From Escherichia phage 308Ecol101PP, in sequence record OR062945.1: a stretch of DNA of 64,000 nt, one strand, 5' to 3'. The translations under genes and the position numbers were made by a program. Below are positions 4,515 through 62,933 of this stretch, piece by piece (position 1 is the stretch's first letter; the number at the start of each line of letters is the position of its first letter). The notes under the pieces were generated by a model. The model worked only from the letters and a program-made list of their open reading frames with translations, ran no database searches and had not been told where the DNA came from.

Positions 4515-4553
4515 GTTTACATAAGGATGATGGCGTGTTACTATCATCCTATC
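4515..4553 (+). promoter_or_regulatory. Early promoter cassette (GTTTAC -35, extended -10 TGTTACTAT) with flanking inverted repeat
   Basis: GTTTAC 4515-4520; IR AGGATGAT / ATCATCCT around the -10. Confidence 0.55.
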
Positions 4554-4578
4554 AAATAAACGACCTCAAGGAAATAAA

Positions 4579-4866
4579 ATGAAAACCTATAAAGAATTTA
4601 TATCACCTGTTGCTAACGTTTCTACTCTGACCGAAGCAACCCTTACTTCCGAAGTTATTAAAGCAAATAAAGGACGTGAGGGTAAACCAATGATTAGTCT
4701 GGTTGACGGCGAAGAAGTAAAAGGTACTGTTTACTTAGGGGATGGATGGTCTGCTAAGAAAGATGGCGCTACTATTGTTATCTCTCCGGCTGAAGAGACT
4801 GCACTGTTTAAAGCTAAGCATATTTCTGTAGCTCAGCTTAAAATTATTGCAAAAACTCTTCTGTAA
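4579..4866 (+). CDS. Internal protein I-like capsid-targeted protein
   Basis: N-terminal MKTYKEFISPV... capsid-targeting leader; 95 aa; position next to 57B as T4 ipI; promoter cassette at 4515. Confidence 0.7.
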   Translation: MKTYKEFISPVANVSTLTEATLTSEVIKANKGREGKPMISLVDGEEVKGTVYLGDGWSAKKDGATIVISPAEETALFKAKHISVAQLKIIAKTLL

Positions 4867-4869
4867 GTA

Positions 4870-4908
4870 GTTTACATGCTGATAGGACTATGTTATAGTA
4901 GTCCTATC
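4870..4908 (+). promoter_or_regulatory. Early promoter stem-loop cassette (PeSL-like)
   Basis: GTTTAC; 10-bp IR GATAGGACTA / TAGTCCTATC flanking TGTTATAG. Confidence 0.6.
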
Positions 4909-4935
4909 AAATCAACAACCAAACGGAAAAAACAA

Positions 4936-5199
4936 ATGAAAACGTATAAAGAATTTATCGCTGAATCTCAATCTTCTACTCTGTCAGAGAACTACGAATC
5001 ATTCTCTTACAACAACGACCATGCAATGTTCTACGACCGAAACATCGGTACTTATGTCCATGTATGGGGTGTTAAAGATGGTAACGTAGTTGTTAAGAAA
5101 AACTCTAAAGAAGGCAATGGTCGTGGCCAGGTAAAAATTACCAGCAAGAAAGCTATCCAAGCTTACGTCGATTATGTTAAACGCGAAGCTGGTATTTAA
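4936..5199 (+). CDS. Capsid-targeted internal-protein-like protein
   Basis: Starts MKTYKEFIAESQ (CTS leader) at internal ATG 4936; promoter cassette at 4870. Confidence 0.65.
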   Translation: MKTYKEFIAESQSSTLSENYESFSYNNDHAMFYDRNIGTYVHVWGVKDGNVVVKKNSKEGNGRGQVKITSKKAIQAYVDYVKREAGI

Positions 5200-5201
5200 T
5201 A

Positions 5202-5241
5202 GTTTACATGATGATAGGACTATGTTATAGTAGTCCTATCA
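5202..5241 (+). promoter_or_regulatory. Early promoter stem-loop cassette (PeSL-like)
   Basis: GTTTAC; identical IR GATAGGACTA / TAGTCCTATC. Confidence 0.6.
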
Positions 5242-5261
5242 AAACATGAGAGGATAATAAA

Positions 5262-5447
5262 ATGAAACGCGCTGAACTGATTCGTAATGTTGCTGTAGTA
5301 ATTGCTTCAATGGCTTTTAGTTTTTCGATGTTTGTAGGATTCATTTGTGGACTACTGACGACAACTGAAAATTCTATCTCATTGGTAGTAGCATTTCTAA
5401 TCGGCTTAATCGCTATCGTTATGGATAAAATTGCAAAAGGTGAGTAA
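5262..5447 (+). CDS. Small membrane protein (61 aa)
   Basis: Hydrophobic 61 aa ORF directly downstream of promoter cassette 5202 with SD GAGAGGA; the overlapping minus-strand ORF is judged a shadow. Confidence 0.55.
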   Translation: MKRAELIRNVAVVIASMAFSFSMFVGFICGLLTTTENSISLVVAFLIGLIAIVMDKIAKGE

Positions 5448-5448
5448 A

Positions 5449-5811
5449 ATGAAATATCACGTATATGCTGATTTTGAAGCAAATCCTTCTAAAGACCCTG
5501 ATTGTCGTTTGATACGCAGACCATTTGATTCAGCAGCTCAAGCATGGGCTTGGATTAAAACTTGTACTCCTTCTTACACTTTCTTTGAAGTGGTAGACGA
5601 TAACGGAGTTCTGCATCCAGAACCTACAGAAACTATTAATTTCCTTCTGTTTGCTGGTTATGACTGTTATCCTCTTGGTGGTATTGACGACCTTGTTGCT
5701 ACAGGAAAAACTGTTGAGGCTCTTCGCGAAATTTATAAAAACGCAGAAGAAAATTTTGACTGGTATCATATTGTTGATGCTCATACCTTTGAAATGGTGG
5801 AACATTCATGA
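5449..5811 (+). CDS. Hypothetical protein
   Basis: SD GGTGAG then ATG 5449 (MKYHVYADFEANPSKDPD...); stop/start overlap with upstream ORF. Confidence 0.6.
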   Translation: MKYHVYADFEANPSKDPDCRLIRRPFDSAAQAWAWIKTCTPSYTFFEVVDDNGVLHPEPTETINFLLFAGYDCYPLGGIDDLVATGKTVEALREIYKNAEENFDWYHIVDAHTFEMVEHS

Positions 5812-6098
5812 TTCTTTATGCTAAAGTATCGTCCATTGAGAATGGATATGAAAGCGATCAACGTGCAGCTAAAGCACTAGTTGATGACTACGGTATTCTG
5901 ACTAACTTTGAGGTTGAAAAGGTTTATATCGACCGTTCATCTTCGCAAGTTAAATTACTCTGTGAAGACGATAAATTTAACACAGTTAACTTTGATTTCT
6001 TTATTGAAACAGAAAAAGGCCCTCTTGAATATGATATTTTCAAGAATCCTTTGAAATTACGTTGCATTGAATATAATTACATTAATATGGTACGGTGA
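5808..6098 (+). CDS. Hypothetical protein
   Basis: ATGA overlap with upstream gene; 96 aa. Confidence 0.6.
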   Translation: MILYAKVSSIENGYESDQRAAKALVDDYGILTNFEVEKVYIDRSSSQVKLLCEDDKFNTVNFDFFIETEKGPLEYDIFKNPLKLRCIEYNYINMVR

Positions 6099-6102
6099 GT
6101 AA

Positions 6103-6618
6103 ATGAATATTTGTTTAGGCAGTACAATTCCTAAGGGTTACGTAATTGATGTCACTACTTGGGAAAATGACGGCGACAACTATAAAACCAAAACATTATT
6201 TGGTGTAGAAGAGCATGAGCTCCAACAGTTTAAATATCTCTTAAAGAAATTTAAGAGCCGTCATTCCAGCACTAAAGCTGAACGTTACTGTGGTAATACA
6301 CTATTCAGTGATTGTTCGCTTTTAATCTATGAATACTTGGTTGAAGGACTGTTCTCAGACCAGCTTTATCCAGAATTCATTAAAAAGGTCTTTGGTATCG
6401 AAGTTGACCTTGGTGACAAATCCGAAGAAGATGAAACACGTGTATTCGACCTATTCTTTGAGAGCGGAGATGAGATATCTCAAGGACTTATTGATATTCT
6501 TGGCTATGCTTCCGAATACTATGATTACGATTTCTTGCGTGTAGTTGAACGTGTTGAATTCGCTTATATTGAAGAAGAAATTGTTTTGCCGACTGTTAAA
6601 ATGATTGATTTGCTTTAA
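6103..6618 (+). CDS. Hypothetical acidic protein
   Basis: SD GGTGAG before ATG; 171 aa. Confidence 0.65.
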   Translation: MNICLGSTIPKGYVIDVTTWENDGDNYKTKTLFGVEEHELQQFKYLLKKFKSRHSSTKAERYCGNTLFSDCSLLIYEYLVEGLFSDQLYPEFIKKVFGIEVDLGDKSEEDETRVFDLFFESGDEISQGLIDILGYASEYYDYDFLRVVERVEFAYIEEEIVLPTVKMIDLL

Positions 6619-6697
6619 GAATTATGTGTTATTATTAATTCATACCCTCTATTACCAAAGGTGCTCTAAAGTGCCTTTCATAATAGAAAGTTATTAA

Positions 6698-6772
6698 GGC
6701 CCTGTAGCTCAATGGGAGAGCTGTCAGCTCATAACTGATAGGTAGCTGGATCGAAACCAGCCAGGGTCACCA
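6698..6772 (+). tRNA. tRNA-Met (anticodon CAT; could be Ile2 if lysidinylated)
   Basis: Hand-folded cloverleaf: acceptor GGCCCTG/CAGGGTC, D stem GCTC/GAGC, anticodon stem GTCAG/CTGAT with loop CTCATAA, T arm GCTGG-ATCGAAA-CCAGC, encoded CCA. Confidence 0.8.
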
Positions 6773-6775
6773 ATT

Positions 6776-6852
<77 letters not shown>

Positions 6853-6870
6853 ACTTCAAGTGAGGAAAAT

Positions 6871-7215
6871 ATGAAAGGCAATATTTATTTGGTAGTTCAT
6901 GATTTAACGTTTTATTTTAACGAACAGGATACAGTTATTTCCGACCGGTTGATTAATTCGTTATATCAACACGCTGATTACGTTTATTTTCAAAATGAAT
7001 TCGGACATTGGAAGTTTCTTAAAAACCGTTCCGGGTTAACTAGTTTTGAATACTTTGACCGTAAAGACCTTTTAAACGAAATTCCATTACAACATCGGTT
7101 CCAGAAACGCGAATCACTATACTATTGTCGCCATATACCAAATGCTGAATGTGTTTATGAAGCGATTAATCTATGGCGTAGACGTAGAGAGCAAATTGAT
7201 GATATGCCAAAATAA
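6871..7215 (+). CDS. Hypothetical protein
   Basis: ATG 6871 after SD GAGGA; the ORF-track start at 6823 would lie inside tRNA-Arg. Confidence 0.55.
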   Translation: MKGNIYLVVHDLTFYFNEQDTVISDRLINSLYQHADYVYFQNEFGHWKFLKNRSGLTSFEYFDRKDLLNEIPLQHRFQKRESLYYCRHIPNAECVYEAINLWRRRREQIDDMPK

Positions 7216-7518
7216 GAAGCCGGGTCGCTACCGGCAAGTCGTCGGACTGATGTTCCCTGAGTAAGGACTGGTCTTAATAAATCTTTATGATTTGTTAATA
7301 TCCCCTTACATCACAGCAGAAACGGCGCAAAGAATTATCGATTCGAGGAAATATCTTTGCCGTAAGCCGAGTAGCGTTTTTGACGGAACGTTCGGATATG
7401 GTCGAGATATGGCCTTTTAAAAATATTGAGTAGCGTCAACTGCTTAATAACCGGGTTCGAATCCCGGCGTTTCGTACAAACACTTGCCTTAGTAGGTGGA
7501 AACCCCGACAAGGTATAT
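7216..7518 (+). ncRNA. Candidate structured stable RNA(s) with tRNA-like 3' T-arm (non-coding gap downstream of tRNAs)
   Basis: 300 nt without ORF, relatively GC-rich; contains CCGGGTTCGAATCCCGG T-arm-like hairpin (7451-7467) and local hairpins; bounded by terminator 7520; T4 has stable RNAs in its tRNA cluster. Confidence 0.3.
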
Positions 7519-7519
7519 A

Positions 7520-7547
7520 GCCCCTTCCGAAAGGTTGGGGCTTTTTT
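7520..7547 (+). terminator. Rho-independent terminator
   Basis: GCCCC-TTCCGAAAGGTT-GGGGC followed by TTTTTT. Confidence 0.7.
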
Positions 7548-7548
7548 G

Positions 7549-7556
7549 TATAAATA
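7549..7556 (+). promoter_or_regulatory. Late promoter motif TATAAATA upstream of CTS-protein gene 7592
   Basis: Exact 8-mer immediately after terminator 7520. Confidence 0.4.
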
Positions 7557-7591
7557 TAGTAAACAATAAACCTACTTTCTAAGGACCATCA

Positions 7592-8218: not shown

Positions 8219-8223
8219 AGAAT

Positions 8224-8243: not shown

Positions 8244-8270
8244 GGGGGTCTATAACTTACTGAAAAAGTT

Positions 8271-8299
8271 GTTTACTTCTTCCCTAGATGTGTTACTAT
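8271..8299 (+). promoter_or_regulatory. Early promoter (GTTTAC, 17 nt spacer, TGTTACTAT)
   Basis: -35/-10 spacing as sigma70 consensus; weak IR. Confidence 0.5.
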
Positions 8300-8327
8300 A
8301 GTCCTATTAAAACATGAGGAGAATATT

Positions 8328-8831
8328 ATGAGTCTTTACACTGAACTGAATAAAAAATCTGAAGAATCCGCTGAAACTATTTTTAAAAACGTGCAAAAGC
8401 GTATTTTAGAAAAGATGTATAACACTGCAGCTAAAGGTGAAAAATCTTGCCGGTTTCCGATGAGGTGTTCTTCCGATTTATGCGCAAATACTATTGAATG
8501 GCTGGAAAGTGAAGGTCTTACGGTAGAGAAAAACCCGGCGTCTTCTATTGACAGTGAATCATATATTAGTATTTCTTGGGATAAATCAAGGGTAGAAGAG
8601 AAAGATGGTGATTGGGTTGTAGATGTTAAAACTTCTGATGGCGGACGTTCTGTTGAAGTTTCAGCTGTAGTTAAAGGTACCCACGAACAAAGGACTTGGG
8701 GATGGGGTGGTGAAGAAAAAGAAATTGTTCTTAGTGTGATTGCCAGGTCAACTAGTAATAAAATTGCACAAAGCATCATTGACGCTGCAATTGCTGAAGC
8801 AGAAAAAATTTGCAAAATTAAAAATAAATGA
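8328..8831 (+). CDS. Hypothetical protein
   Basis: Promoter cassette 8271 and SD GAGGAGA upstream; 167 aa. Confidence 0.65.
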   Translation: MSLYTELNKKSEESAETIFKNVQKRILEKMYNTAAKGEKSCRFPMRCSSDLCANTIEWLESEGLTVEKNPASSIDSESYISISWDKSRVEEKDGDWVVDVKTSDGGRSVEVSAVVKGTHEQRTWGWGGEEKEIVLSVIARSTSNKIAQSIIDAAIAEAEKICKIKNK

Positions 8832-8860: not shown

Positions 8861-8889
8861 AGACCTATCAACTACAGAGGAGAAACAAA

Positions 8890-9117
8890 ATGGCTACAGT
8901 TAGTATTGATGTCGTTGATTATGAATACACCGAAGAAGTTATTCGCAGCCGTCACCCTGAAGTTCGTATCGATTCAGTCCAAGATTCCAAGTTTTGGACA
9001 ACCGAGCTTAATCTGAGTGGTCCTTATGAAGCTGTTAAGAAGTTCATGGTTGAAGAATACTGCGAAGGCATGCACCCCGAAGACGCCGAGTTTTATGTCA
9101 ATTTGATTAAAAAATAA
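8890..9117 (+). CDS. Hypothetical acidic protein
   Basis: Promoter 8832, SD GAGGAGA; 75 aa. Confidence 0.6.
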   Translation: MATVSIDVVDYEYTEEVIRSRHPEVRIDSVQDSKFWTTELNLSGPYEAVKKFMVEEYCEGMHPEDAEFYVNLIKK

Positions 9118-9125
9118 TTTACAAA

Positions 9126-9161
9126 CTCTTGAGAGCAGAGTATAATGCTCTCGTTGGATAA
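9126..9161 (+). promoter_or_regulatory. Early promoter cassette with IR GAGAGC / GCTCTC around TATAAT
   Basis: TTTACA -35, TATAAT -10 at 9150-9155; near-identical copy at 39400. Confidence 0.6.
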
Positions 9162-9187
9162 TAAACCACCAATTGAAAGGTAATAAT

Positions 9188-9781
9188 ATGAACACACTGA
9201 AGAAACTTGTTGAATTCATCCGCACTAAACTTGGTACTGCTATGGCTAAAAATCTGACTGTCGAAGAACAGTATAACGCAGCTGCAGATAAGTTGATTAC
9301 CCAAATCAAAGAACTAAAAACGGCTTCTGTTAAATCTATTAATGAAGAAAAACGTATTCGCGAACTTGTTATTGAAAAGAATAAGCAAGCCGCTTCTAAG
9401 GAACGTGAAATTCGTAAGCTCTTGGCTGAAGGACAAGATGTTACCATGCATGCCAAGCTTGGTCTTCTGTATCGTCGAACTGCCGAACAACTTAATACAA
9501 AAGCTGACGGGTACGCTGCTATGCGAATTGAAATTGCTCGTAAGGTGGTTGAACTTGATGATGCTCGTCAGAACCTGGCAATCAAACTCGAATACATTCG
9601 TGAAACTCGAGCAGCCAATGCCCTTGGTATCTCTACGGCTGATGATGTAATTGAAATCGCTGCACTGACTAAGGTTGATATCGAAGACACTCTGACTCGT
9701 GTTGAAACGTTCAATGGCACTCCAGCTGGTGTCGAAACCACTTCTGCTGATGTACAAGAATATATTAACTCTTTGAAATAA
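9188..9781 (+). CDS. Coiled-coil protein (PspA/IM30-like?)
   Basis: Promoter cassette 9126; long heptad-rich helical sequence; terminator hairpin at 9790. Confidence 0.65.
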
Positions 9782-11924: not shown

Positions 11925-11963
11925 GTTTACAACAAGATAGGGCTATGTTATAGTAGTCCTATC
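11925..11963 (+). promoter_or_regulatory. Early promoter stem-loop cassette (PeSL-like)
   Basis: GTTTAC; IR GATAGGGCTA / TAGTCCTATC. Confidence 0.6.
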
Positions 11964-11982
11964 AAATTAAATGGAGTCCACA

Positions 11983-12222
11983 ATGATTTATTACGAAAGT
12001 ATCGGAACCAAAGTGGTTGGTAAAACCATTACTCGCGAAAAGTTTGCAAAGATATTCGATATGCGTTATAAAAAATCTGAACACAAAGGCATCCGATTCG
12101 AAGATGCGCACTGTACAATTTGTCCTTATAATGAAGACATAAACGGTACAATCGTTCCATTGGTAGAGGCTTCACATGATGACCTCTGGGATGAATATAA
12201 TATCGCATGTCGTGAAATTTAA
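11983..12222 (+). CDS. Hypothetical protein
   Basis: Promoter cassette 11925; SD GGAG before ATG 11983 (alternative start 11971). Confidence 0.6.
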   Translation: MIYYESIGTKVVGKTITREKFAKIFDMRYKKSEHKGIRFEDAHCTICPYNEDINGTIVPLVEASHDDLWDEYNIACREI

Positions 12223-13215: not shown

Positions 13216-13253
13216 GTTTACAAGGTCTGTAGTTGTTGATACTATAGACCTAT
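13216..13253 (+). promoter_or_regulatory. Early promoter stem-loop cassette (PeSL-like)
   Basis: GTTTAC; IR GGTCTGTAG / CTATAGACC. Confidence 0.55.
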
Positions 13254-13282
13254 CAAAACAAATGAGTGAATGGAGATACAAA

Positions 13283-13483
13283 ATGACTACTTTGAATAAA
13301 CGTTTCGGTAAAGCTAAACCTGGCTGTGCAGCAGAACGTCGTTACATTTTCGCTCAGTTAGAAGATGTAGAGTATCAGATTAATCAAGTTCACATTACTG
13401 GCATCGAGCCTATGTGTGGCCTTGAAGCTCTTCGTGAAGTTCGTGACGGGTATCGTCGTGATATCGAAGAAATGTCAAAATAA
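13283..13483 (+). CDS. Hypothetical protein
   Basis: Promoter cassette 13216; SD GGAGA before ATG 13283 (alternative start 13262). Confidence 0.55.
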   Translation: MTTLNKRFGKAKPGCAAERRYIFAQLEDVEYQINQVHITGIEPMCGLEALREVRDGYRRDIEEMSK

Positions 13484-13522
13484 GTGTACAAACTGATAGG
13501 GCTATGTTATAGTAGTCCTATT
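13484..13522 (+). promoter_or_regulatory. Early promoter stem-loop cassette (PeSL-like)
   Basis: GTGTAC; IR GATAGGGCTA / TAGTCCTATT. Confidence 0.55.
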
Positions 13523-13541
13523 AAAACATGAGGAGAATAAT

Positions 13542-13847
13542 ATGAAATTAACAGAAACCAACCGAATTGGTCTTTTAACAATACTTGCATCACCTTTTTA
13601 CGCAGCTCTTTCTGTTGCAGTATTACAAAAGGCTTACGATATGGATGGTGTTCCTGGTTTTGTATTCTTATCACCGTTTTTGCTATTCGTTGGAGCATTG
13701 TTATTATACGCCACGACTAGTTTCGACCATAATGTCTGGGTCAATTATAAATGTAAATTGTCTGAAGAAGAACACGCAGAAGCTCGTAAAAAAGCTATTG
13801 AATCTACCAATCTAGAAAATTTCATTAAAGAATGTCGAGGAAAATAA
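13542..13847 (+). CDS. Small membrane protein, FIKECR-tail family
   Basis: Promoter cassette 13484; hydrophobic segments; C-terminal ...ENFIKECRGK. Confidence 0.65.
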   Translation: MKLTETNRIGLLTILASPFYAALSVAVLQKAYDMDGVPGFVFLSPFLLFVGALLLYATTSFDHNVWVNYKCKLSEEEHAEARKKAIESTNLENFIKECRGK

Positions 13848-15709: not shown

Positions 15710-15739
15710 AATAAATACCTCCTATAAACGTGGGAGGTA
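15710..15739 (+). promoter_or_regulatory. Lysozyme RBS-sequestering hairpin with embedded late-promoter-like AATAAATA
   Basis: TACCTCC (15716-15722) pairs with GGAGGTA (15733-15739), which contains the lysozyme SD GGAGG; 7/8 match to TATAAATA at 15710-15717. Confidence 0.45.
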
Positions 15740-15741
15740 TT

Positions 15742-16509: not shown

Positions 16510-16564
16510 GTTTACTTCCTCCAAGGGTTTTGATACTATACATTCATCAACTACTTGGAGGAAA
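16510..16564 (+). promoter_or_regulatory. Early promoter cassette; IR pairs an anti-SD segment with the denV SD
   Basis: GTTTAC; TTCCTCCAAG (16517-16526) complementary to CTTGGAGGAA (16555-16564), which holds the SD; -10 TACTAT inside the loop. Confidence 0.6.
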
Positions 16565-16566
16565 TT

Positions 16567-16980
16567 ATGACTCGTATCAATTTAACACTTGTTTCTGAAC
16601 TGACCGACCAACATCTTATGGCTGAGTATCGTGAATTACCACGCGTATTTGGTGCAGTCCGTAAACATGTTCAAAACGGTAAACGTGTAAAGGATTTTAA
16701 AATCTCTCCAACATTTATCTTAGGCACAGGTCACGTAACATTCTTTTACGACAAACTCGAATTTTTACGTTTACGTCAAATCGAGCTAATCGCCGAATGC
16801 TTGAAACGTGGTTTCAAAATCAAGGACACATCTGTCCAAGATATTTCCGACATCCCTGCCGAATTTCGTAATAATTATGTCCCGTCCGAAGCGTCCATTG
16901 CGATAAGTCAAGCACGCTTAGATGAAAAAATTGCTCAGCGCCCGACTTGGTACAAATACTATGGTAAATCAATTTACTAA
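16567..16980 (+). CDS. denV: Endonuclease V (pyrimidine dimer DNA glycosylase)
   Basis: [35 protein letters not shown]...[10 protein letters not shown] matches T4 DenV. Confidence 0.95.
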
Positions 16981-17640: not shown

Positions 17641-17812
17641 TTCTTGCCTAATAAAGGGAAACGCAACCTCTCCTTATGAACGTCGAGTCCTCTAAGTGAT
17701 GTACCTTTTCCAACCTGTAATAAGGTCGAGCGCAATGCGGTAATGGGTTTACATAGCGAGTCGAAGGACCTAACATGTGCCACGGAACGGCCCAAACCTT
17801 AAGAGAAATAAT

Positions 17813-18352
17813 ATGAGAACATTTTTAACTGGACCTTATCTATCCCTGATGAATGCTTTTACACACCATTCTGATGCTAGAGTAGAAGAAATTTGTAAGA
17901 ACGGTTATGTCCCACCATTTGAAGACGTACTCAAGCAGTACTGTACACTTCGTTTAGACGGTGGTAGACAATCAGGTAAATCGACCGCAGTAACTAATTT
18001 TGCTGTTAATTGGCTGTATGACGGTGGAACAGTTATTGTTCTTTCTAATACTTCAGCTTACGCTAAAATTTCTGCTGGCAACATTGAAAAAGAATTTTCT
18101 CGTTATTCTAGCGACGATATTCGATTCCGTTTATTTACTGATTCTGTCCGTAGTTTTATTGGCAATGAAGGTTCTAAATTCCGTGGATTAACGCTTTCTC
18201 GTATTCTGTATATAATTGACGAGCCTATTAAAGCTCCTGATATGGATAAGATTTACAACATACATATTAAAACAGTCCAACACTGTTGCAAAAGCAAATA
18301 TTGCATCAGTGGTATTGCTCGTCCTCAATTTTTTGTGATTGGAATGCAATGA
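17813..18352 (+). CDS. P-loop NTPase-like protein
   Basis: Walker A-like GGRQSGKST; ATG 17813 after SD AGAGAAA. Confidence 0.6.
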   Translation: MRTFLTGPYLSLMNAFTHHSDARVEEICKNGYVPPFEDVLKQYCTLRLDGGRQSGKSTAVTNFAVNWLYDGGTVIVLSNTSAYAKISAGNIEKEFSRYSSDDIRFRLFTDSVRSFIGNEGSKFRGLTLSRILYIIDEPIKAPDMDKIYNIHIKTVQHCCKSKYCISGIARPQFFVIGMQ

Positions 18353-19240: not shown

Positions 19241-19507
19241 ATGTCGATTGAAGACATCAAAGGCTACAAGCCACATACCAATGATAAAATCAGTAAAGTG
19301 AACGCTATTAAAGACGCAGAAGTCCGTCTTGGATTGATGTTTGATGCTCTGATTGAAGAAGCATATATCTTGAAAGAAAATGAATCAGAGCAACAAACCA
19401 AAGAAGATATGGATGCAGTGCAGGCTCTTAAGTATGCTAAGCAACATCTAAAAGAAGCCAGCATGTGGGCATGTCGTGCAGTATTTCGACCTGAGGAAAA
19501 ATACTAA
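19241..19507 (+). CDS. Hypothetical protein
   Basis: SD GAGGAAA then ATG 19241. Confidence 0.55.
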   Translation: MSIEDIKGYKPHTNDKISKVNAIKDAEVRLGLMFDALIEEAYILKENESEQQTKEDMDAVQALKYAKQHLKEASMWACRAVFRPEEKY

Positions 19508-19726: not shown

Positions 19727-19777
19727 GTTTACTTCTCCTCTAGTTGTGTTACTATAGACCTGTCAACTAGAGGAGAA
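19727..19777 (+). promoter_or_regulatory. Early promoter stem-loop cassette; 14-bp perfect IR pairing anti-SD with SD
   Basis: GTTTAC; TTCTCCTCTAGTTG / CAACTAGAGGAGAA flanking TGTTACTATAGACCTGT. Confidence 0.65.
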
Positions 19778-19783
19778 ATCAAA

Positions 19784-20242
19784 ATGACTATCAATTCAGA
19801 CGTTTTTATCCGCCGCAATAAACTCCGTCGAATCTTTGAAACGGAGTTCCGCAAAATAAATGCCGGTATAAAAGATGCTGCAAAGTCTCTTGGACTACCA
19901 GGCTTTCATATCAAGTATTCTCAACATCTCTTAGATCGTGCCATCCAGAGAGAAATAGATGAGAACTACGTTTTTGAATTATTTCGTAAAGTAAAAAATC
20001 ATGTTAAAGAAGTTGCAGAATTTTTATCAATGCCGGCACGTCCAGATGTTGATGAAGATTTTGTCGAAGGTGTCGAATACCGTCCAGGCCGTTTAGAAAT
20101 AACTGACGGAAATCTTTGGTTAGGACTTACAGTTTGTCGCGAAAATCCAGCATTCAAAATGAAGACTCTTCAATGCAGAATGGCTATTATTAACAGTAAA
20201 CGACTACCAGGAAAAGCTTCTAAAGCAGTGATTAAAATCTAG
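19784..20242 (+). CDS. regB: RegB-like endoribonuclease (tentative)
   Basis: 152 aa (T4 RegB is 153 aa); lies between denV and tk as regB does in T4; promoter cassette 19727; call rests on size, position and partial recall of the sequence. Confidence 0.55.
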   Translation: MTINSDVFIRRNKLRRIFETEFRKINAGIKDAAKSLGLPGFHIKYSQHLLDRAIQREIDENYVFELFRKVKNHVKEVAEFLSMPARPDVDEDFVEGVEYRPGRLEITDGNLWLGLTVCRENPAFKMKTLQCRMAIINSKRLPGKASKAVIKI

Positions 20243-23379: not shown

Positions 23380-23431
23380 GTTTACTTCTCCTCAGGTTGT
23401 GTTATAGTAGACCTTACTTACTAGAGGAGAA
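23380..23431 (+). promoter_or_regulatory. Early promoter stem-loop cassette
   Basis: GTTTAC; TTCTCCTC / GAGGAGAA IR; -10 TGTTATAGT. Confidence 0.55.
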
Positions 23432-23435
23432 CGTT

Positions 23436-23615
23436 ATGTCACGTAAAGAAAAAATTTCTAAGTTAATGTTTTTGATTGAAGAGTACGCTAATGCGGTATC
23501 TGATTGGGAAAATGCTCATGGTTGCGAAGATGGAGACATCGACATTAACAGAGCTATGAAAAAGATGGCAGATGCCCACACCGAATTGCAAATGTATGTT
23601 AACGAGATTATGTGA
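23436..23615 (+). CDS. Hypothetical protein
   Basis: Promoter cassette 23380, SD GGAGA then ATG 23436. Confidence 0.55.
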   Translation: MSRKEKISKLMFLIEEYANAVSDWENAHGCEDGDIDINRAMKKMADAHTELQMYVNEIM

Positions 23616-23881: not shown

Positions 23882-24097
23882 ATGTTATATGACCCAAGCG
23901 GTTGTTCTGAAGATGGTGTGATTGTTCTGGAGCCTGAGCATCCAGTTGGTGATGTATATCGCACCGTTGAAGTATGTGAATGTAATTTCGTTGAAGGTAA
24001 TACTGGCGGAATTTCCATTGAGCAAGAAGATGATGTTATTTACCTGGATGCAAGCCAAGTAGAAGCTCTTTATAGCATTTTAAAACATAATCGGTAG
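23882..24097 (+). CDS. Small protein, MLYD paralog 2
   Basis: MLYDPSGCSEDGVIVLEPE...C.C; SD GAGGAAA. Confidence 0.5.
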   Translation: MLYDPSGCSEDGVIVLEPEHPVGDVYRTVEVCECNFVEGNTGGISIEQEDDVIYLDASQVEALYSILKHNR

Positions 24098-24137
24098 TTT
24101 ACGTCTTGGTAGGACTATGTTATAGTAGTCCTACCAA
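24097..24137 (+). promoter_or_regulatory. Early promoter stem-loop cassette (PeSL-like)
   Basis: GTTTAC; IR TTGGTAGGACTA / TAGTCCTACCAA. Confidence 0.6.
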
Positions 24138-24154
24138 AACAAATGGAGAACAAA

Positions 24155-24265
24155 ATGAAACTTTTGCTTATCGCTTATGTTGTAGTACAATACAATTATC
24201 CGATGTTTACTTATAACATGGTAAACGGCATAGTGAATCTTATTGAAACGAGTATGGTAAAATGA
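24155..24265 (+). CDS. Very small hydrophobic ORF (36 aa)
   Basis: Directly downstream of promoter cassette 24097 with SD GGAGAA; ATGA coupling to next ORF; below ORF-track threshold. Confidence 0.3.
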   Translation: MKLLLIAYVVVQYNYPMFTYNMVNGIVNLIETSMVK

Positions 24266-24442: not shown

Positions 24443-24973
24443 ATGAAAACTGTAATTGAAACAACCGAGTTGTTTGGTGATTTATGTATCGAAAAACGTG
24501 GTTATGTGTATGTTCTGACACAAGAAGATGATGCTGCTACTATTCTTCCTATGGAACTGGACAAGATTTTGAAACTCAATCCACCGGGTCATGCATCTGT
24601 AATTAACATTAATGAAGACCTTCAAGTTCGTTTTTATCATGGACTTTATAGTGGGGTTAATATCGAAACTGAAGACGAATGTTTTTCTATTAATAATTGG
24701 AAAACATTCGTCACTAAGGTGAAAGAATTCGTGGAATCTGAAACAGCCAAAAAGGCCAAACTTCAATGGGCTAAATGCCGTAATGCTTTTATTACAAATC
24801 AGGACCGCCCTGACTATACAACAGTCCTAGGCGTTAATCCTTCTTATGAAGATGGTGATGTCGTAGTTATTCGTCAAATTGATGACCTTCGACAACATAT
24901 CATTACATTAGACAAAGATGAAGCAGTTGCTCTTAAAGCTTATCTTGATTCTATTATCCCGACTTTGAAATAA
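24443..24973 (+). CDS. Hypothetical protein
   Basis: ATG 24443 two nt after upstream stop; 176 aa. Confidence 0.65.
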   Translation: MKTVIETTELFGDLCIEKRGYVYVLTQEDDAATILPMELDKILKLNPPGHASVININEDLQVRFYHGLYSGVNIETEDECFSINNWKTFVTKVKEFVESETAKKAKLQWAKCRNAFITNQDRPDYTTVLGVNPSYEDGDVVVIRQIDDLRQHIITLDKDEAVALKAYLDSIIPTLK

Positions 24974-28265: not shown

Positions 28266-28300
28266 GTTTACAAGGTCTATAGTTATGTTATTATAGACCT
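28266..28300 (+). promoter_or_regulatory. Early promoter stem-loop cassette
   Basis: GTTTAC; IR AGGTCTATA / TATAGACCT. Confidence 0.6.
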
Positions 28301-28321
28301 ATCAACTACTGGAGGTAAAAC

Positions 28322-28849
28322 ATGAACGCTAAAGATATTTTCAACCTGGTAAATTATAACGACGGTAAATTTAAATCTGAAGCACAAAGCAAGTTCTTTA
28401 ATGACGTTGCTTATGGTAACGAGATTACCGTGGACGGAGGTCAGATTTTCAAATCTCGCTGGAATTGGATTGCTATCATCGATTCAGTTGGAATTGTGGA
28501 AGTCTACAAAAACACTAACAAAAAACGTACATTATTCTGGTCTCGTGAAACTAACGAGCAGTACAAAAAGGATAAAGCATCTCGTTTATCCAAAGTAACC
28601 CAGGAAGATATCGAGTTTATCAAGAAAGATATCGAGATGTACGAAAATTTAATCGCTGAAGACCAGGCAGTACTCGATAAGTTTGATGAAATTAAAGCTT
28701 CTCGTGAAATCCCTGACTTCATGAAAGAAACAGTAAACGAACGATACGCTCTCACTTCAGAACGTATTGCAAACTATACAAAACAGAAAGCAGAACGTAT
28801 TAGTACTCTTCGGAAATTTGAAGAACGTTTAAAGACGGTTCACGCATAA
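28322..28849 (+). CDS. Coiled-coil protein
   Basis: Promoter cassette 28266, SD GGAGG; 175 aa. Confidence 0.65.
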   Translation: MNAKDIFNLVNYNDGKFKSEAQSKFFNDVAYGNEITVDGGQIFKSRWNWIAIIDSVGIVEVYKNTNKKRTLFWSRETNEQYKKDKASRLSKVTQEDIEFIKKDIEMYENLIAEDQAVLDKFDEIKASREIPDFMKETVNERYALTSERIANYTKQKAERISTLRKFEERLKTVHA

Positions 28850-37971: not shown

Positions 37972-38012
37972 GTTTACATCCTCAATAGATGTGTTAAGAT
38001 TAAACCATCTAC
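37972..38012 (+). promoter_or_regulatory. Early promoter cassette with IR TAGATG / CATCTA
   Basis: GTTTAC; -10 GTTAAGAT. Confidence 0.5.
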
Positions 38013-38028
38013 TATAGAGGAAAATAAA

Positions 38029-38211
38029 ATGACAATTGAAGATAAAGAAATTAAGGTCGACCAGTACTATTCTGTCAATGGTAATGCAGTACAGATAACC
38101 AGAGTTTCAAGCCTGGATGTTTGGTACCGTTCAATCAAATATCCAGAAATTGGTGAAATGCTTTGTGACCGTGGTATCTTCTGTTCAATTGCAAAGGAAA
38201 TTAAGCCATGA
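38029..38211 (+). CDS. Hypothetical protein
   Basis: Promoter cassette 37972; SD AGAGGAAA then ATG 38029. Confidence 0.5.
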   Translation: MTIEDKEIKVDQYYSVNGNAVQITRVSSLDVWYRSIKYPEIGEMLCDRGIFCSIAKEIKP

Positions 38212-39096: not shown

Positions 39097-39099
39097 TAA

Positions 39100-39138
39100 T
39101 GTACAACGATAGGAAGACGTGTTATTATCTTCCTATCG
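39100..39138 (+). promoter_or_regulatory. Early promoter stem-loop cassette
   Basis: TGTACA; IR CGATAGGAAGA / TCTTCCTATCG flanking GTGTTATTAT. Confidence 0.6.
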
Positions 39139-39159
39139 TCTTAAAATGAGGAAAATATC

Positions 39160-39399
39160 ATGGAACAAGAATTAGACGTTATTACATCGAAAAAACGTCT
39201 TGAAGTCGTAGTGAATGGCTCAACTATTAAGTTTGTATATGACACTTTAACTGATGCTATTACCGTTAGTTGTGGTGGAAAGGCTTTTAGTCTAGATTCT
39301 ACTGAAAACAAATACCCGTTCTATAAAGGTATCTTTGATATGGGTGTTGATATCAGTGTTCGTCAAGCAAACTATTTACATTATCTTATCACGGAATAA
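39160..39399 (+). CDS. Hypothetical protein
   Basis: Promoter cassette 39100; SD GAGGAAAA. Confidence 0.55.
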   Translation: MEQELDVITSKKRLEVVVNGSTIKFVYDTLTDAITVSCGGKAFSLDSTENKYPFYKGIFDMGVDISVRQANYLHYLITE

Positions 39400-45092: not shown

Positions 45093-45146
45093 ACGCTTTA
45101 ACACGATGTGGTTATAATGACCACATCAAATTAAATGGAGAACAAC

Positions 45147-59461: not shown

Positions 59462-59470
59462 GGAGTTATC

Positions 59471-60913
59471 GTGGTAGAAATTATTTTGTCTCATCTAGTA
59501 TATGACCAGGCTTATTTTTCTAAGGTCTGGCCTTATATGGATTCTGAGTATTTTGAGCGTGGACCGGCAAAAAATGTCTTTAAAATTATAAAGAGCCACG
59601 TTAACGAATATAATGCAATGCCATCTATCAATGCGTTAAAGGTGGCTTTAGATAACAGTTCTTTAACTGAAGCCGAATATAAAGGAACTTCAGACCTAAT
59701 TGAAAAATTGGCTGATACTCCTGAAGACCATGAATGGTTGGTTAAAGAAACTGAGAAATATGTCCAGCAAAAAGCGATGTATAATGCTACGTCCAAAATC
59801 ATTGAGATTCAGTCTAATGCTGAATTACCTCCAGAACAACGTAACAAGAAAATGCCTGATGTAGGAGCTATTCCTGATATTATGCGTCAAGCACTTTCAA
59901 TTTCGTTTGATAGTTATGTTGGGCATGACTGGATGGAAGACTATGAAGCACGCTGGCTTTCTTATCTAAACAAAGCACGTAAGGTCCCGTTCAAATTAAA
60001 CATTCTGAATAAAATCACTAAAGGTGGTGCTGAAACCGGTACACTGAATGTTTTAATGGCTGGTGTTAACGTTGGTAAATCTTTAGGCCTTTGTTCACTT
60101 GCTGCAGATTATCTTCAAACAGGTCATAACGTTCTTTATATTTCTATGGAAATGGCTGAAGAAGTTTGCGCTAAGCGTATAGATGCAAACATGCTTGACG
60201 TATCACTTGATGATATTGATGATGGTAACGTATCTTATGCTGAATATAAAGCCAAGATGGAAAAATGGCGTTCAAAATCCACATTAGGACGTTTAGTAGT
60301 TAAACAGTATCCTACTGGCGGAGCTAATGCTAATACATTCCGTGCATTGCTTAATGAATTGAAACTCAAGAAGAACTTTGTGCCATCTGTAATCATGGTT
60401 GATTACTTAGGTATTTGTGGGTCTTGTCGTATCAGAGTTTACACTGAAAATAGTTACACATTAGTTAAAGCTATCGCAGAAGAACTTCGTGCATTAGCAG
60501 TAGAATCTGAAACAGTTCTATGGACTGCAGCTCAAGTAGGACGTGCAGCATGGGATGCTTCGGATATGAACATGAGCGATATTGCAGAATCAGCAGGTTT
60601 ACCAGCAACGGCAGATTTCATGTTGGCCGTAATTGAAACCGAAGAACTTGCACAAGCCGAACAACAACTTATCAAACAAATCAAATCACGATACGGCGAT
60701 AAGAATAAGTGGAATAAATTCCTGATGGGTGTACGTAAAGGCAACCAGAAATGGATTGAGATTGAGCAAGAAGGCATGAACACATCTAACACAGTAAATG
60801 AAAACGCAGGTGCTCAGATGCGTCAGGCAGAGGTGAATCGTACGGAACGCGTAGGTAAAGCCAAAGCAACACGTGCTGACCTAGATAGCTTAGCCAATGA
60901 GTTAAAATTTTAA
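59471..60913 (+). CDS. 41: Replicative DNA helicase gp41 (DnaB-like)
   Basis: GTG start; MVEIILSHLVYDQAYFSKVWPYMDSEYFERGPAKN...; Walker A AGVNVGKS; matches T4 gp41. Confidence 0.95.
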   Translation: MVEIILSHLVYDQAYFSKVWPYMDSEYFERGPAKNVFKIIKSHVNEYNAMPSINALKVALDNSSLTEAEYKGTSDLIEKLADTPEDHEWLVKETEKYVQQKAMYNATSKIIEIQSNAELPPEQRNKKMPDVGAIPDIMRQALSISFDSYVGHDWMEDYEARWLSYLNKARKVPFKLNILNKITKGGAETGTLNVLMAGVNVGKSLGLCSLAADYLQTGHNVLYISMEMAEEVCAKRIDANMLDVSLDDIDDGNVSYAEYKAKMEKWRSKSTLGRLVVKQYPTGGANANTFRALLNELKLKKNFVPSVIMVDYLGICGSCRIRVYTENSYTLVKAIAEELRALAVESETVLWTAAQVGRAAWDASDMNMSDIAESAGLPATADFMLAVIETEELAQAEQQLIKQIKSRYGDKNKWNKFLMGVRKGNQKWIEIEQEGMNTSNTVNENAGAQMRQAEVNRTERVGKAKATRADLDSLANELKF

Positions 60914-60918
60914 TAAAA

Positions 60919-60938
60919 AGGAGACTTCGGTCTCCTTT
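60919..60938 (+). terminator. Terminator-like hairpin after gene 41
   Basis: GGAGAC-TTCG-GTCTCC then TTTCGGGG. Confidence 0.55.
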
Positions 60939-60942
60939 CGGG

Positions 60943-60996
60943 GTTTACATCTTCCTCTAGGCATGATACGATGTACTTACACCAACCAAGAGGAAA
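60943..60996 (+). promoter_or_regulatory. Early promoter cassette with anti-SD/SD inverted repeat
   Basis: GTTTAC; TTCCTCT ... AGAGGAA. Confidence 0.5.
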
Positions 60997-61001
60997 ACAT
61001 T

Positions 61002-61376
61002 ATGAATATGTCTCAAGCAATTTTTACTGCAATCACCGAAAACACAACTGTTGAAGTAGTTTCTCCACTGGCAACCTACGTTATTCTTGCTCCTAAAACT
61101 ATTGTATCTCGTATGGAAAACATGGGCAAACGTATCGTACAAATTGTTGGAGCCGGAAATCAAAAACTTGATTATCTGCGAACCATCAAAGCTTATGAAC
61201 ATTTCCAACTCGAAAAAGGTTCTCCTATCCAGGTAGAACTCGTAAATGGTGATATCGTTCGAGCAATGTTCCATCATTTCTATGCATTGAATGACCCATC
61301 TAAAGCAGTTCGTTTAATTGCATACGACGCAAACCAAACCGAAATCAACGCAGATGTATCTAAATTACGTTTTTAA
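61002..61376 (+). CDS. Hypothetical protein
   Basis: Promoter cassette 60943; SD AGAGGAAAA then ATG 61002. Confidence 0.6.
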   Translation: MNMSQAIFTAITENTTVEVVSPLATYVILAPKTIVSRMENMGKRIVQIVGAGNQKLDYLRTIKAYEHFQLEKGSPIQVELVNGDIVRAMFHHFYALNDPSKAVRLIAYDANQTEINADVSKLRF

Positions 61377-61427
61377 GTTTACTTCTCCAGTAGTTGTGTT
61401 ATTATAGACCTATCAACTACTGGAGAA
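61377..61427 (+). promoter_or_regulatory. Early promoter stem-loop cassette; 14-bp perfect IR
   Basis: GTTTAC; TTCTCCAGTAGTTG / CAACTACTGGAGAA; differs from the 19727 copy by compensatory changes. Confidence 0.65.
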
Positions 61428-61431
61428 CAAA

Positions 61432-61749
61432 ATGAAAACCATCGATTGTAAAGCAGAATTTAAGATTTTTTATCACGGTTCAAGTAGTTCAGCTAACATC
61501 GAAAACATGCTTTGTCCTCCTGAGGAAACAGGAGTTCTGTCTGAAACCGGACGTAAGAAAAACTTGGATCGTGTATTCTTTACTGAAGATATCGGTTTAG
61601 CAAAGATTTATGCAGGACGAGCAGCACGCTCTTATGGAGGTGAACCACGTCTCTATCGAGTAATTTCTCCGGTAGACGTAGTTCAAATGAATGATACTAA
61701 AGGTGCTACAGTTTATCACGCTGAATGGGCATTTTGTGAGGAAATATGA
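61432..61749 (+). CDS. Hypothetical protein
   Basis: Promoter cassette 61377; SD GGAGAA. Confidence 0.6.
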   Translation: MKTIDCKAEFKIFYHGSSSSANIENMLCPPEETGVLSETGRKKNLDRVFFTEDIGLAKIYAGRAARSYGGEPRLYRVISPVDVVQMNDTKGATVYHAEWAFCEEI

Positions 61750-61937
61750 GCAAATTAACTAAAGTTACTTTTATAGGTTGGTTTAAAAGCGGTGAGATGT
61801 TCACTAAAGATATCATGTTATCAGGTGATCGCGAAGAAATCGAGTGGGTTACGGTACAACTTGCTGAAGTGAACAACGCATTAGTTAAAGCATTTGTTAA
61901 TGACGAGAAAGTTTTTGAAGCTGATTTCAGAGGATAA
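61746..61937 (+). CDS. Hypothetical protein
   Basis: ATGA overlap; 63 aa. Confidence 0.5.
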   Translation: MSKLTKVTFIGWFKSGEMFTKDIMLSGDREEIEWVTVQLAEVNNALVKAFVNDEKVFEADFRG

Positions 61938-61938
61938 T

Positions 61939-62151
61939 ATGTATTCAACTGTGTTTAAACCATCAACATACGAATTTGCATCAACTACACAATGGAAAGC
62001 TCTTATTCTGGAAGGATGGGAACTAATGATGGACTGTGAAGCATCTGAAAAGTTTCCGCACGGCAAAGTGGACTTCGTTAAATTTGCTGTACGTCCGACT
62101 AAACGACAGATTCGTCAAGAAAAACGCAAATTTCGCAAAAGTTTAAAATAA
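61939..62151 (+). CDS. Small basic protein, VRPTKRQ-tail family
   Basis: C-terminal ...FAVRPTKRQIRQEKRKFRKSLK; SD GAGGATAA then ATG 61939. Confidence 0.5.
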   Translation: MYSTVFKPSTYEFASTTQWKALILEGWELMMDCEASEKFPHGKVDFVKFAVRPTKRQIRQEKRKFRKSLK

Positions 62152-62153
62152 CT

Positions 62154-62183
62154 GTTTACAAGCACCACATACTGTGTTACTAT
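62154..62183 (+). promoter_or_regulatory. Early promoter (GTTTAC ... TGTTACTAT)
   Basis: Consensus hexamers upstream of lipoprotein gene. Confidence 0.5.
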
Positions 62184-62211
62184 CTTTTTATCAACTACAG
62201 AGGAAATTAAA

Positions 62212-62580
62212 ATGAAAAAATTAATCGCTTTAGCAATGGTATTTGGATTAACCGGATGTGGTGCCCATGGCTTTATCCCTAATAACGTTGGCCAATTGAT
62301 TTACAATCCGAATGTTAAACAATATGAACAACCTAAAGTTGAAGTGGAAGACCCGGTTACTGTAGGTAATCGAATGATTCAAGCTGATGCCCATGCTCAA
62401 CGTTATCGTGACTCTGATACTGTAGCTGTGTCAAAGGAACAGCGCGTTAAAGAACATTGCTTACAGGCTACTGAAATCGCATTCATTCGCTATGTTGAAA
62501 CAACCGGTAAAGAGCCTACCCAGAAACAAATCGCGAATAACTACGTCCAGTGTATTGAACGTTTAAACAAATTTAATTAA
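62212..62580 (+). CDS. Lipoprotein
   Basis: MKKLIALAMVFGLTGC signal peptide with lipobox; promoter 62154. Confidence 0.6.
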   Translation: MKKLIALAMVFGLTGCGAHGFIPNNVGQLIYNPNVKQYEQPKVEVEDPVTVGNRMIQADAHAQRYRDSDTVAVSKEQRVKEHCLQATEIAFIRYVETTGKEPTQKQIANNYVQCIERLNKFN

Positions 62581-62641
62581 TTGGTTTACGCCAAAGTTAA
62601 AACAAGATGCTATAAACATAACAAATCAAGAGGAAATTAAC

Positions 62642-62890
62642 ATGGAATTATTCGTGGCTAGTTCAGTAGCAGTTTTAATCGCAGGTATTGGTTCAATCAT
62701 CATTTACATGTTGCCTTGGGTAATCGCACTTATTCGTGGCACAAAAAGCACAACAGCAATCTTCTTTGTATCTTTACTCTTTAACTGGACGATGATTGGT
62801 TGGATTGGAACTTTAATTTGGTCTATTGTTGCCGAAAAGAAATCTGCTCAGCAGCCTCAACAAGTAATTATTATTCGCGAAAAAGAATAA
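62642..62890 (+). CDS. Small membrane protein
   Basis: Two hydrophobic segments; 82 aa. Confidence 0.55.
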   Translation: MELFVASSVAVLIAGIGSIIIYMLPWVIALIRGTKSTTAIFFVSLLFNWTMIGWIGTLIWSIVAEKKSAQQPQQVIIIREKE

Positions 62891-62894
62891 ACTT

Positions 62895-62933
62895 GTTTAC
62901 ATTATAGATGGACTATAGTATAGTAGTCCTATC
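62895..62933 (+). promoter_or_regulatory. Early promoter stem-loop cassette (PeSL-like)
   Basis: GTTTAC; IR GATGGACTA / TAGTCCTATC. Confidence 0.55.

Follow-up and report, generated by a model that had tools for sequence, protein, structure and literature searches.

Early-promoter cassettes with spacer-encoded hairpins in an RB69-like phage: predicted masking of the Shine-Dalgarno sequence on read-through RNA

The promoter early stem-loops (PeSLs) of phages RB49 and phi1 combine an early promoter with a stem-loop, fall into five positional subclasses, among them 'between -35 and -10' and 'overlapping the -10', and have been read as terminators or attenuators and as recombination linkers (Arbiol et al. 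2010, PMC2839356). Elements at the internal-protein (IP) loci of T-even phages, which that paper reports from Repoila et al. 1994, are described there as 'analogs' on T4 early promoters with weaker AT-rich stems, not as homologues (PMC2839356). A separate principle is known from the T4 genes e, soc, 49 and I-TevI, in which the Shine-Dalgarno (SD) sequence or the AUG is sequestered on long transcripts and RNA from an internal promoter, lacking the 5' arm of the helix, is translated (PMC3014915). Here we analyse the early-promoter cassettes in a stretch of 64,000 nucleotides of Escherichia phage 308Ecol101PP (OR062945.1), hereafter called the window, in which hairpins are interleaved with the promoters. 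On the evidence of predicted folds we think it probable, with some reserve, that the 5' hairpin arm encoded in the promoter spacer marks the origin of an mRNA and that, in a class of cassettes that we call type B, it would tie the expression of a gene to its own early promoter.

Early promoters in the gaps between small genes

By sequence comparison the window belongs to an RB69-like T-even phage (Mosigvirus), of which it covers the early/middle region. Over 8 kb it shares 95-97% identity with Escherichia phages PNJ-9, PNJ-6, CEV1, HX01 and JS09, and it is colinear with about 18 to 82 kb of RB69 in reverse complement. Searching for GTTTAC-N17/18-TANNNT, we obtained 25 matches, of which 24 are on the + strand; shuffled sequence gave 1.99 +/- 1.32, so the promoter module that a first-pass annotation of the window had described upstream of most small genes occurs far above the 2 copies expected by chance. 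A position weight matrix (PWM) trained on the clear cases recovered 23-26 cassettes on the + strand and 0-1 on the - strand, newly adding 8831, 39099 and 62584, and a looser scan requiring an SD and an ATG gave 28 candidates on the + strand and 0 on the - strand. Seven of these 28 (11037, 15035, 17747, 24205, 31877, 33282 and 38674) are doubtful as promoters, being intragenic with long or atypical leaders.

The PWM consensus of the window cassettes reads ...aAAgCaGTTTACAT / TgTGTTATnATAGtCCTATCAAA. Judged by these motifs, the cassettes are T4-type early promoters in roughly 65-nt gaps between same-strand early genes, with a GTTTAC -35 at -36..-31, a gap of 17-18 nt, a TGn-extended -10 having A at -11 and T at -7, and an A-rich, UP-like tract upstream; the same consensus has been published for T4 and RB69, with 57 early promoters predicted (PMC1524935). 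We set the start site at the 7th nt after the -10, a register published for T4 and RB69 early promoters (PMC1524935) and carried over to the window. The upstream stop codon usually lies 0-10 nt 5' of the -35, and the end of the -10 is separated from the ATG by 26-30 nt in 18 of the 28 first-pass cassettes. A T4-like regB cassette was annotated as 'promoter' by one depositor, and the GenBank record of T4 contains no promoter features.

Two hairpin geometries and their described relatives

A significant inverted repeat was found in about 17 of about 27 cassettes (39099 included), the other 10 or so having the promoter and no significant stem-loop, so that the 'about 25' hairpin cassettes of the first-pass annotation stand as a count of promoters and not of inverted repeats. 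The same 17 or so combine an early promoter with a stable stem-loop within or adjoining it, followed by an SD and a start codon, which is what defines a PeSL. For 16 of the first-pass 28, spacer-leader pairing was stronger than in 95% of the versions with a shuffled spacer, and the helix score was at least 8 in 15 of the 24 cassettes passing a stricter scan. The folds of the 16 ranged from -10 to -21.9 kcal/mol, and 13 of them were equalled by at most 5 of 200 dinucleotide shuffles, the weak ones being 23380, 60943 and 62895. When perfect stems of at least 9 bp were searched for without bias through the window, 8 of 21 fell in cassettes, which occupy about 2.8% of its length, and the remaining 13 matched the shuffle expectation. 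An Rfam search of the window returned no family for the cassettes, the gathering score being reached by two tRNAs (6698-6849) only.

The hairpins fall into two geometries. In type A (11 copies) the 5' arm lies at the 3' end of the spacer, TGn and the -10 form the loop, and the 3' arm begins with the final base of the -10 and ends between about +4 and +10, 6-10 nt short of the SD. In type B (6 copies) a pyrimidine anti-SD right behind the -35 pairs with the SD itself. The cassettes are given below with their arms (5' / 3'), fold energy (dG) and z score against shuffles where these apply.

4515..4581 (+): type A, 5' of an internal-protein gene (MKTYKEFI...); arms 4524-4533 / 4541-4550 (AGGATGATGG / CTATCATCCT); dG -14.6, z -3.1
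4870..4938 (+): type A, 5' of a second internal-protein gene; arms 4880-4890 / 4899-4909 (TGATAGGACTA / TAGTCCTATCA), TGn and -10 in the loop; dG -18.0, z -5.4
5202..5264 (+): type A; arms 5212-5222 / 5231-5241; dG -20.6, z -5.6
9117..9190 (+): type A with ATTTAC as -35, 5' of e.6; arms 9131-9137 / 9146-9152 (GAGAGCA / TGCTCTC)
11925..11985 (+): type A; arms 11936-11945 / 11954-11963, one G.U pair; z -3.9
13216..13285 (+): type A variant; arms 13223-13233 / 13241-13251 (AGGTCTGTAGT / ACTATAGACCT), one G.U pair; from folding
13484..13544 (+): type A with GTGTAC as -35; arms 13496-13504 / 13513-13521; from folding
16510..16569 (+): type B, 5' of denV; anti-SD arm 16516-16525 (TTCCTCCAAG) / SD arm 16554-16563 (CTTGGAGGAA); dG -19.1, z -4.1
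19727..19786 (+): type B, 5' of regB; arms 19733-19746 (TTCTCCTCTAGTTG) / 19764-19777 (CAACTAGAGGAGAA); dG -21.6, z -4.9
23380..23438 (+): type B, weaker, 5' of a mobD.2a-like open reading frame (ORF); arms 23386-23393 (TTCTCCTC) / 23424-23431 (GAGGAGAA); z -0.85
24097..24157 (+): type A; arms 24103-24117 / 24126-24140; dG -21.9, z -5.7
28266..28324 (+): type A, 5' of nrdC.8; arms 28273-28281 / 28292-28300 (AGGTCTATA / TATAGACCT); from folding
37972..38031 (+): type B; arms 37979-37988 (TCCTCAATAG) / 38012-38021 (CTATAGAGGA); z -2.7
39099..39162 (+): type A with ATGTAC as -35, absent from the first-pass annotation; arms 39106-39117 / 39128-39139 (ACGATAGGAAGA / TCTTCCTATCGT); from the PWM scan
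60943..61004 (+): type B, short; arms 60952-60958 (TTCCTCT) / 60989-60995 (AGAGGAA); z -1.7
61377..61434 (+): type B, the upstream stop abutting the -35; arms 61383-61396 (TTCTCCAGTAGTTG) / 61414-61427 (CAACTACTGGAGAA); dG -21.7, z -5.5
62895..62956 (+): type A, degenerate; arms about 62907-62916 / 62923-62933; z -1.8
8271..8330 (+), and likewise 8831, 17251, 26790, 30903, 62154 and 62584: cassettes without a significant inverted repeat, from promoter scans and shuffles

Folding of read-through and promoter-proximal RNA separated the two classes. In type B the SD is predicted to be unpaired at 0-1% in read-through RNA versus 37-78% in the cassette's own transcript (0.00 versus 0.72 even at 23380), and in most type A cassettes its predicted accessibility is about the same in both RNAs. 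The first-pass annotation had supposed that the 3' half of the repeat often contains the SD, masking it on read-through RNA and leaving it free on the own transcript. The SD does lie in the 3' arm at the five sites named there (16510, 19727, 23380, 60943 and 61377) and also at 37972, and for these six folding and strong cross-clade covariation support the predicted masking; the eleven type A hairpins exclude the SD, and therefore the masking mechanism does not apply to them, the shared-core family included. That family is built on the core GATAGGACTA/TAGTCCTATC of type A, the first half of which occurs 21 times at no more than one mismatch against 3.2 expected. Its two halves stand as facing arms at 4881/4899, 5213/5231, 11936/11954, 13495/13513 and 24108/24126, that is, at five of the six sites for which a common core had been claimed; the sixth, 62895, has only a degenerate copy. 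In 24097, GGTAGG/CCTACC is a compensated variant of GATAGG/CCTATC, and the 9117 cassette shows two compensatory changes relative to the similar PmotB cassette of T4. Across cassettes, the stretch from -6 to +12 (discriminator plus initial transcribed region), which supplies the 3' arm of type A, is kept as AG(A/T)CCTATCAAAAC or ...CTATCAACTAC, T4 having ACAACTATCAACTAC.

Type A is a member or an analogue of the described PeSL kind. As in RB49 and phi1, an intergenic early promoter with an A-rich upstream tract is followed by a stem-loop, an SD and an ATG, the elements are dense among small early ORFs, and they are linked with indels and gene replacements. The RB49 hairpins that we folded (ORF185-233 intergenic regions) lie inside the spacer or bracket the -10, for example GGGAGTA-gtaaga-TACTCCC, which is the type A geometry; with this likeness, and with 11 of 20 break points falling in cassettes (below), the label 'PeSL-like' given in the first-pass annotation is a fair one. 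However, the RB49 promoter is a near-perfect TTGACA/TATAAT with G/C-rich GGGG/CCCC stems, whereas the window has GTTTAC and mixed stems. In none of the folded ORF185-233 hairpins is the SD paired, so that type B is without a counterpart there, and the papers on RB49 and T-even PeSLs never invoke translation.

A second described set is that of the T4/PST PeSLs (Comeau et al. 2014, PMC4122927), which share with the window the consensus TTTACW-N17-TAYWAT, the phage group and a role at shuffling junctions; as at the T-even IP loci, the 4515, 4870 and 5202 cassettes flank internal-protein genes. The claim that a dense set in a T4-like genome was something new is thus overstated, since the 2014 work had already added T4/PST and KVP40/nt-1 to the phages with PeSLs (PMC4122927) and analogues at T-even IP loci had been reported in 2010 (PMC2839356). 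According to the 2014 legend, however, the T4/PST stem-loop lies just 5' of the promoter, a position occupied in the window only by 60917-60938, a terminator-like UUCG-tetraloop hairpin (AAAGGAGAC-TTCG-GTCTCCTTT) that directly follows gene 41 and precedes the 60943 cassette's -35 by 5 nt, and the T4/PST description includes neither the -10-bracketing nor the SD-pairing geometry. In nt-1/KVP40 and in jumbo phages (IMG/VR loci L051-L060) hairpin and early promoter are likewise joined in one compact element, but in those elements the -35 is part of the hairpin (AAAAGGGTTGAC-TTCG-GTCAGCCCTTTTT) and a T-run comes after it, the shape of a true intrinsic terminator, which none of the window cassettes has. 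Near the denV homologue, five such jumbo-phage contigs of 345-378 kb (L051, L053, L056, L059 and L060) carry many near-identical AAAAGGGTTGAC-TTCG-GTCAGCCCTTTTTGCTATAAT elements in which the T-run of the -35-bearing hairpin fills the spacer and the -10 comes next, a fusion of terminator and promoter.

Type B resembles the T4 e/soc/49/I-TevI arrangement in that the SD is paired in the long RNA and the 5' arm lies upstream of an internal start, a description that the six type B cassettes fit and the eleven type A cassettes do not. Unlike type B, the T4 genes use late promoters (TATAAATA), which delay expression; in type B the internal promoter is early, the spacer between -35 and -10 carries the 5' arm, and translation is predicted to be restricted to the early period. 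Across the T-even clades, type B accounts for about a third of the early cassettes, whereas the e-type arrangement concerns a handful of genes. The window contains an e-type element of its own: at the start of e (lysozyme), 15714-15741 form a hairpin AATACCTCC-TATAAACGTG-GGAGGTATT followed by the ATG, with a late-promoter-like TATAAAC in the loop, which we take to be the textbook T4 e-type translational gate and an in-window positive control. Type B therefore looks new as an early-promoter, anti-SD version that merges two known ideas, the PeSL and the internal-promoter hairpin gate. The accessible reviews mention neither SD masking at early promoters nor a regB hairpin, and since older subscription papers (Liebig & Rueger 1989 and the denV/regB sequence papers) lay outside this scope, priority is uncertain.

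Conservation of pairing among T-even phages

To follow the hairpins beyond the window, we assembled a non-redundant set of 245 T-even cassettes, drawn from the window, from 62 kb of T4 sequence and from IMG/VR loci of 20 kb that surround nrdC.8 and denV. Helix scores of at least 8, 10 and 12 were reached by 61%, 43% and 24% of them, compared with 17%, 6% and 2.6% when spacers were shuffled. Pairing of the SD is predicted for 35% of the read-through RNAs, for 18% once their upstream part is shuffled, and for only 2 of the 245 own transcripts. T4 itself has both types, A at dmd, mobD.2 and motB, and B at motB.2 and nrdC.8.

For regB and denV, covariation was measured by folding each sequence separately and comparing the energies of own and cross-combined halves; a fixed-register MAFFT alignment of the regB cassettes, meant for RNAalifold and pair counting, was dropped because the arms were out of register. 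Twelve distinct regB cassettes gave mean folds of -19.2 kcal/mol for read-through RNA and 0.0 for the own transcript, with -13.7 when halves were cross-combined, and 26 distinct denV cassettes gave -16.3, -0.3 and -10.3, respectively, with -7.8 for a shuffled upstream part. The type B stems differ by clade with pairing preserved (TTCTCCTCTAGTTG/CAACTAGAGGAGAA, TTTCTCCTCTTTATG/CATAAAGAGGAGAAA, TCTCCTGTAAG/CTTACAGGAGA and TCTCCGTTTG/CAAACGGAGA). In many denV cassettes, which we call 'type C', the 5' arm has shifted onto the -10/discriminator and the SD is still the 3' arm. Counted by locus, masking is predicted in 21 of 26 promoter-bearing denV orthologues, 16 of 20 for regB and 4 of 4 for nrdC.8, and loci without a hairpin remain hairpin-free across orthologues; as far as these sequences go, hairpin class is a property of the locus.

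Type A gave a similar picture. Perfect runs of at least 8 bp are present in 18% of cassettes, compared with 0.8% when each 5' half is joined to the 3' half of another cassette; the arms represent 31 distinct sequences, and e.6 and the mobD.2-like gene have wholly different stems in 4-6 clades. In the long leader of e.6 (9153-9165 and orthologues) a block GGATAATAAA(A)C, 3' of the hairpin, is kept across clades whose stems are unrelated. Internal mismatches occur as G.T and A.C in the ratio 40:15, counted with the paralogous jumbo-phage elements removed, and this excess of G.T points to folding of the sense strand, that is, of RNA; a first pooled count of 63:16 was discarded, having been inflated by the paralogous terminator-promoters of the jumbo phages. 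Both hairpin types covary across T-even clades, and on this comparative evidence the pairing is under selection.

Cassettes also coincide with genome rearrangements. Of the 20 points at which homology between the window and RB69 breaks off, 11 are no more than 25 nt away from a cassette, where about 1 would be expected, an association that is correlative only, and many alignments with other Mosigvirus genomes begin or break exactly at the regB cassette. The stretch 4515-5262 is rearranged relative to RB69, with break points inside cassettes. Three small ORFs there and further along (window 4579-5199 and 17311), each with one cassette, have N-termini MKTYKEFI/MKTYQ, the capsid-targeting leader of T-even internal proteins.

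The + strand carries every gene of the window, in the order 2, 3, 1, 57B, internal-protein genes ... e, denV, regB, tk, nrdC, 49, nrdD, 55, 47, 46, 45, 44, 62, regA, 43, uvsX, 41 ... dmd, imm. The two adjacent tRNA genes at 6698-6849 correspond to a region annotated in RB69 as tRNA-Met and tRNA-Arg. Strong short-range inverted repeats outside the cassettes include 24674-24712 (12 bp, 15-nt loop), 19345-19392 (10 bp, 28-nt loop) and 45097-45135 (19 nt with a 1-nt gap), the last covering the stop codon of gene 46 and the next start codon. Directly 5' of the ATG at 17813, a block TGTGCCA(A/C)GGAA(T/C)GGCCC (17775-17800) is strongly kept in about 30 orthologous loci, even where the flanks have only 35-40% protein identity; it could be a coding overlap or an RNA element.

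Origin-marked RNA, competing explanations and meaning

The spacer is the sole part of the promoter that is free to vary, and in about two thirds of the cassettes it holds the 5' arm of the hairpin. As the 3' arm is 3' of the -10 and RNA from the cassette's own promoter should begin about 7 nt after the -10, past the 5' arm, the hairpin would be possible only in RNA entering from an upstream promoter. In type B, such read-through RNA would have its SD locked in a helix of 7-14 bp and would be poorly translated, and the own transcript would have an unstructured leader with a free SD; masking of this kind would make expression depend on the own early promoter and so restrict it to the first minutes of infection. 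Early promoters are off within minutes, and read-through and middle transcription persist (PMC2988021), so that masking would confine RegB, which reviews call tightly regulated, and the other type B products to the early period. Since RegB is inhibited by secondary structure and requires a single-stranded GGAG (PMC1702504), the SD helix would also shield read-through RNA from RegB. The SD regions at 61423-61434 and 24146-24157 are GGAGAACAAAATG, a perfect fit to the published RegB/S1 target consensus GGAGRAYARAA. As for type A, where pairing appears to be selected and the hairpin would be confined to read-through RNA, its role is a guess: standing between cistrons, it would most likely serve attenuation or the protection of RNA ends. 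Through their mutual resemblance the cassettes would also act as homology patches for gene swapping.

Several observations weigh against this interpretation. Masking of the SD is predicted in only 6 of about 27 cassettes, and the type A hairpins have no U-tract and bring no change in predicted SD accessibility. Among the six, the helices at 23380, 60943 and 37972 are short or modest, and the overall fold at 23380 is no better than that of shuffles. The +1 positions of this phage's cassettes are deduced from the position of the -10. In the pooled set, the excess of SD masking is about two-fold over shuffles and small against a control with swapped halves (35% vs 27.5%); this swap control is uninformative for the SD core, since every anti-SD pairs with every SD, and we set it aside in favour of shuffles, covariation of the stem extensions and conservation per locus. 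Restricted to strict type A, the count of G.T against A.C is 8:7, and the pooled counts are not independent, including as they do related sequences. Finally, nrdC.8 has type A in the window and type B in T4 and in IMG/VR loci L024/25, and with hairpin type varying between clades in this way selection may favour 'a hairpin' and not SD masking.

A rival is the classical interpretation of PeSLs, by which the stem-loops are attenuators or terminators insulating small genes and mainly linkers for recombination (shuffling, mini-circles), translation being uninvolved. In RB49, a PeSL stem-loop lowered the expression of a reporter as much as rrnB T1 did, and the same work detected mini-circles (PMC2839356); the RB49 hairpin geometry is that of window type A, near-identical cassettes stand at non-orthologous loci (window 9117 and T4 PmotB), and the RB69 break points and the Mosigvirus alignments starting at the regB cassette fit a linker, although break points are expected at gene boundaries anyway. 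None of the cassette hairpins, however, is followed by a T-run or was called terminator-like, and for want of T-runs we set aside their reading as intrinsic terminators, although the RB49 stem-loops reported to terminate are likewise without a U-tract. Insulation and linkage leave unexplained why the SD is the 3' arm at denV and regB across clades and why three geometries converge on it, and covariation at orthologous loci speaks for selection on pairing, not for homology alone. We therefore regard an explanation without translation as unlikely, though it deserves serious weight.

Two further possibilities appear less probable still. A ribosome terminating upstream might open the SD helix, so that the downstream gene would be translated in step with its neighbour. 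This would suit 16510, 19727 and 61377, where 6-10 nt separate the stop codon and the 5' arm, and the median gap of 10 nt over 32 type B cassettes, 59% of which have the stop within 12 nt, a spacing that also speaks against tight masking; but such closeness follows from the compact layout anyway, the gap is 38-51 nt at 23380 and 60943, and in type C (denV, many clades) its median is 25 nt, beyond the reach of a terminating ribosome, all of which makes coupling rather improbable. Very improbable, in our judgement, is an element acting in DNA, whether a cruciform or strand hairpin that tunes promoter melting, a nuclease target (gp49, gp46/47) or the site of a dimeric shut-off regulator, even if the type A arms are nearly perfect Watson-Crick repeats symmetric about the -10, with the even strict-class mismatch ratio given above, and the mechanism by which T4 early promoters are shut off is not understood (PMC3014915; PMC2988021). 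With more than 31 arm sequences a sequence-specific protein is excluded, and we rejected an operator on the ground that arms differ among cassettes; the pooled mismatch ratio favours folding of the sense strand, and repeats with 7-14 bp arms and 8-28 nt loops do not readily form cruciforms. In the open complex, moreover, the 5' arm in the spacer remains double-stranded.

Returning to RNA marked by its promoter of origin, we tentatively extend the proposal, as a possibility for which we hold less than even confidence, to a general form: promoter spacers would be a second, RNA-level code, limiting translation and RegB sensitivity to own-promoter transcripts at about a third of T-even early genes, regB and denV included, and the -10-bracketing hairpins would belong to the same origin-marking system and would not be terminators. 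If masking is false, the finding amounts to a further set of the known early-promoter/stem-loop cassettes. If it is true, part of the PeSL concept would be recast from terminator and linker to translational gate, annotators would have a rule, namely to seek an anti-SD in the promoter spacer, and synthetic operons would gain a compact, portable design for a gene that answers only its own promoter. For the phages themselves, many T4-type early genes would be controlled in cis by the promoter from which the RNA came. This would bear on the difference between immediate-early and delayed-early expression and on the way in which RegB and other early proteins are tightly limited after shut-off, by a mechanism that reviews call unclear, and it would offer a cis explanation for the abrupt halt in the synthesis of some early proteins despite continuing read-through and middle RNA.

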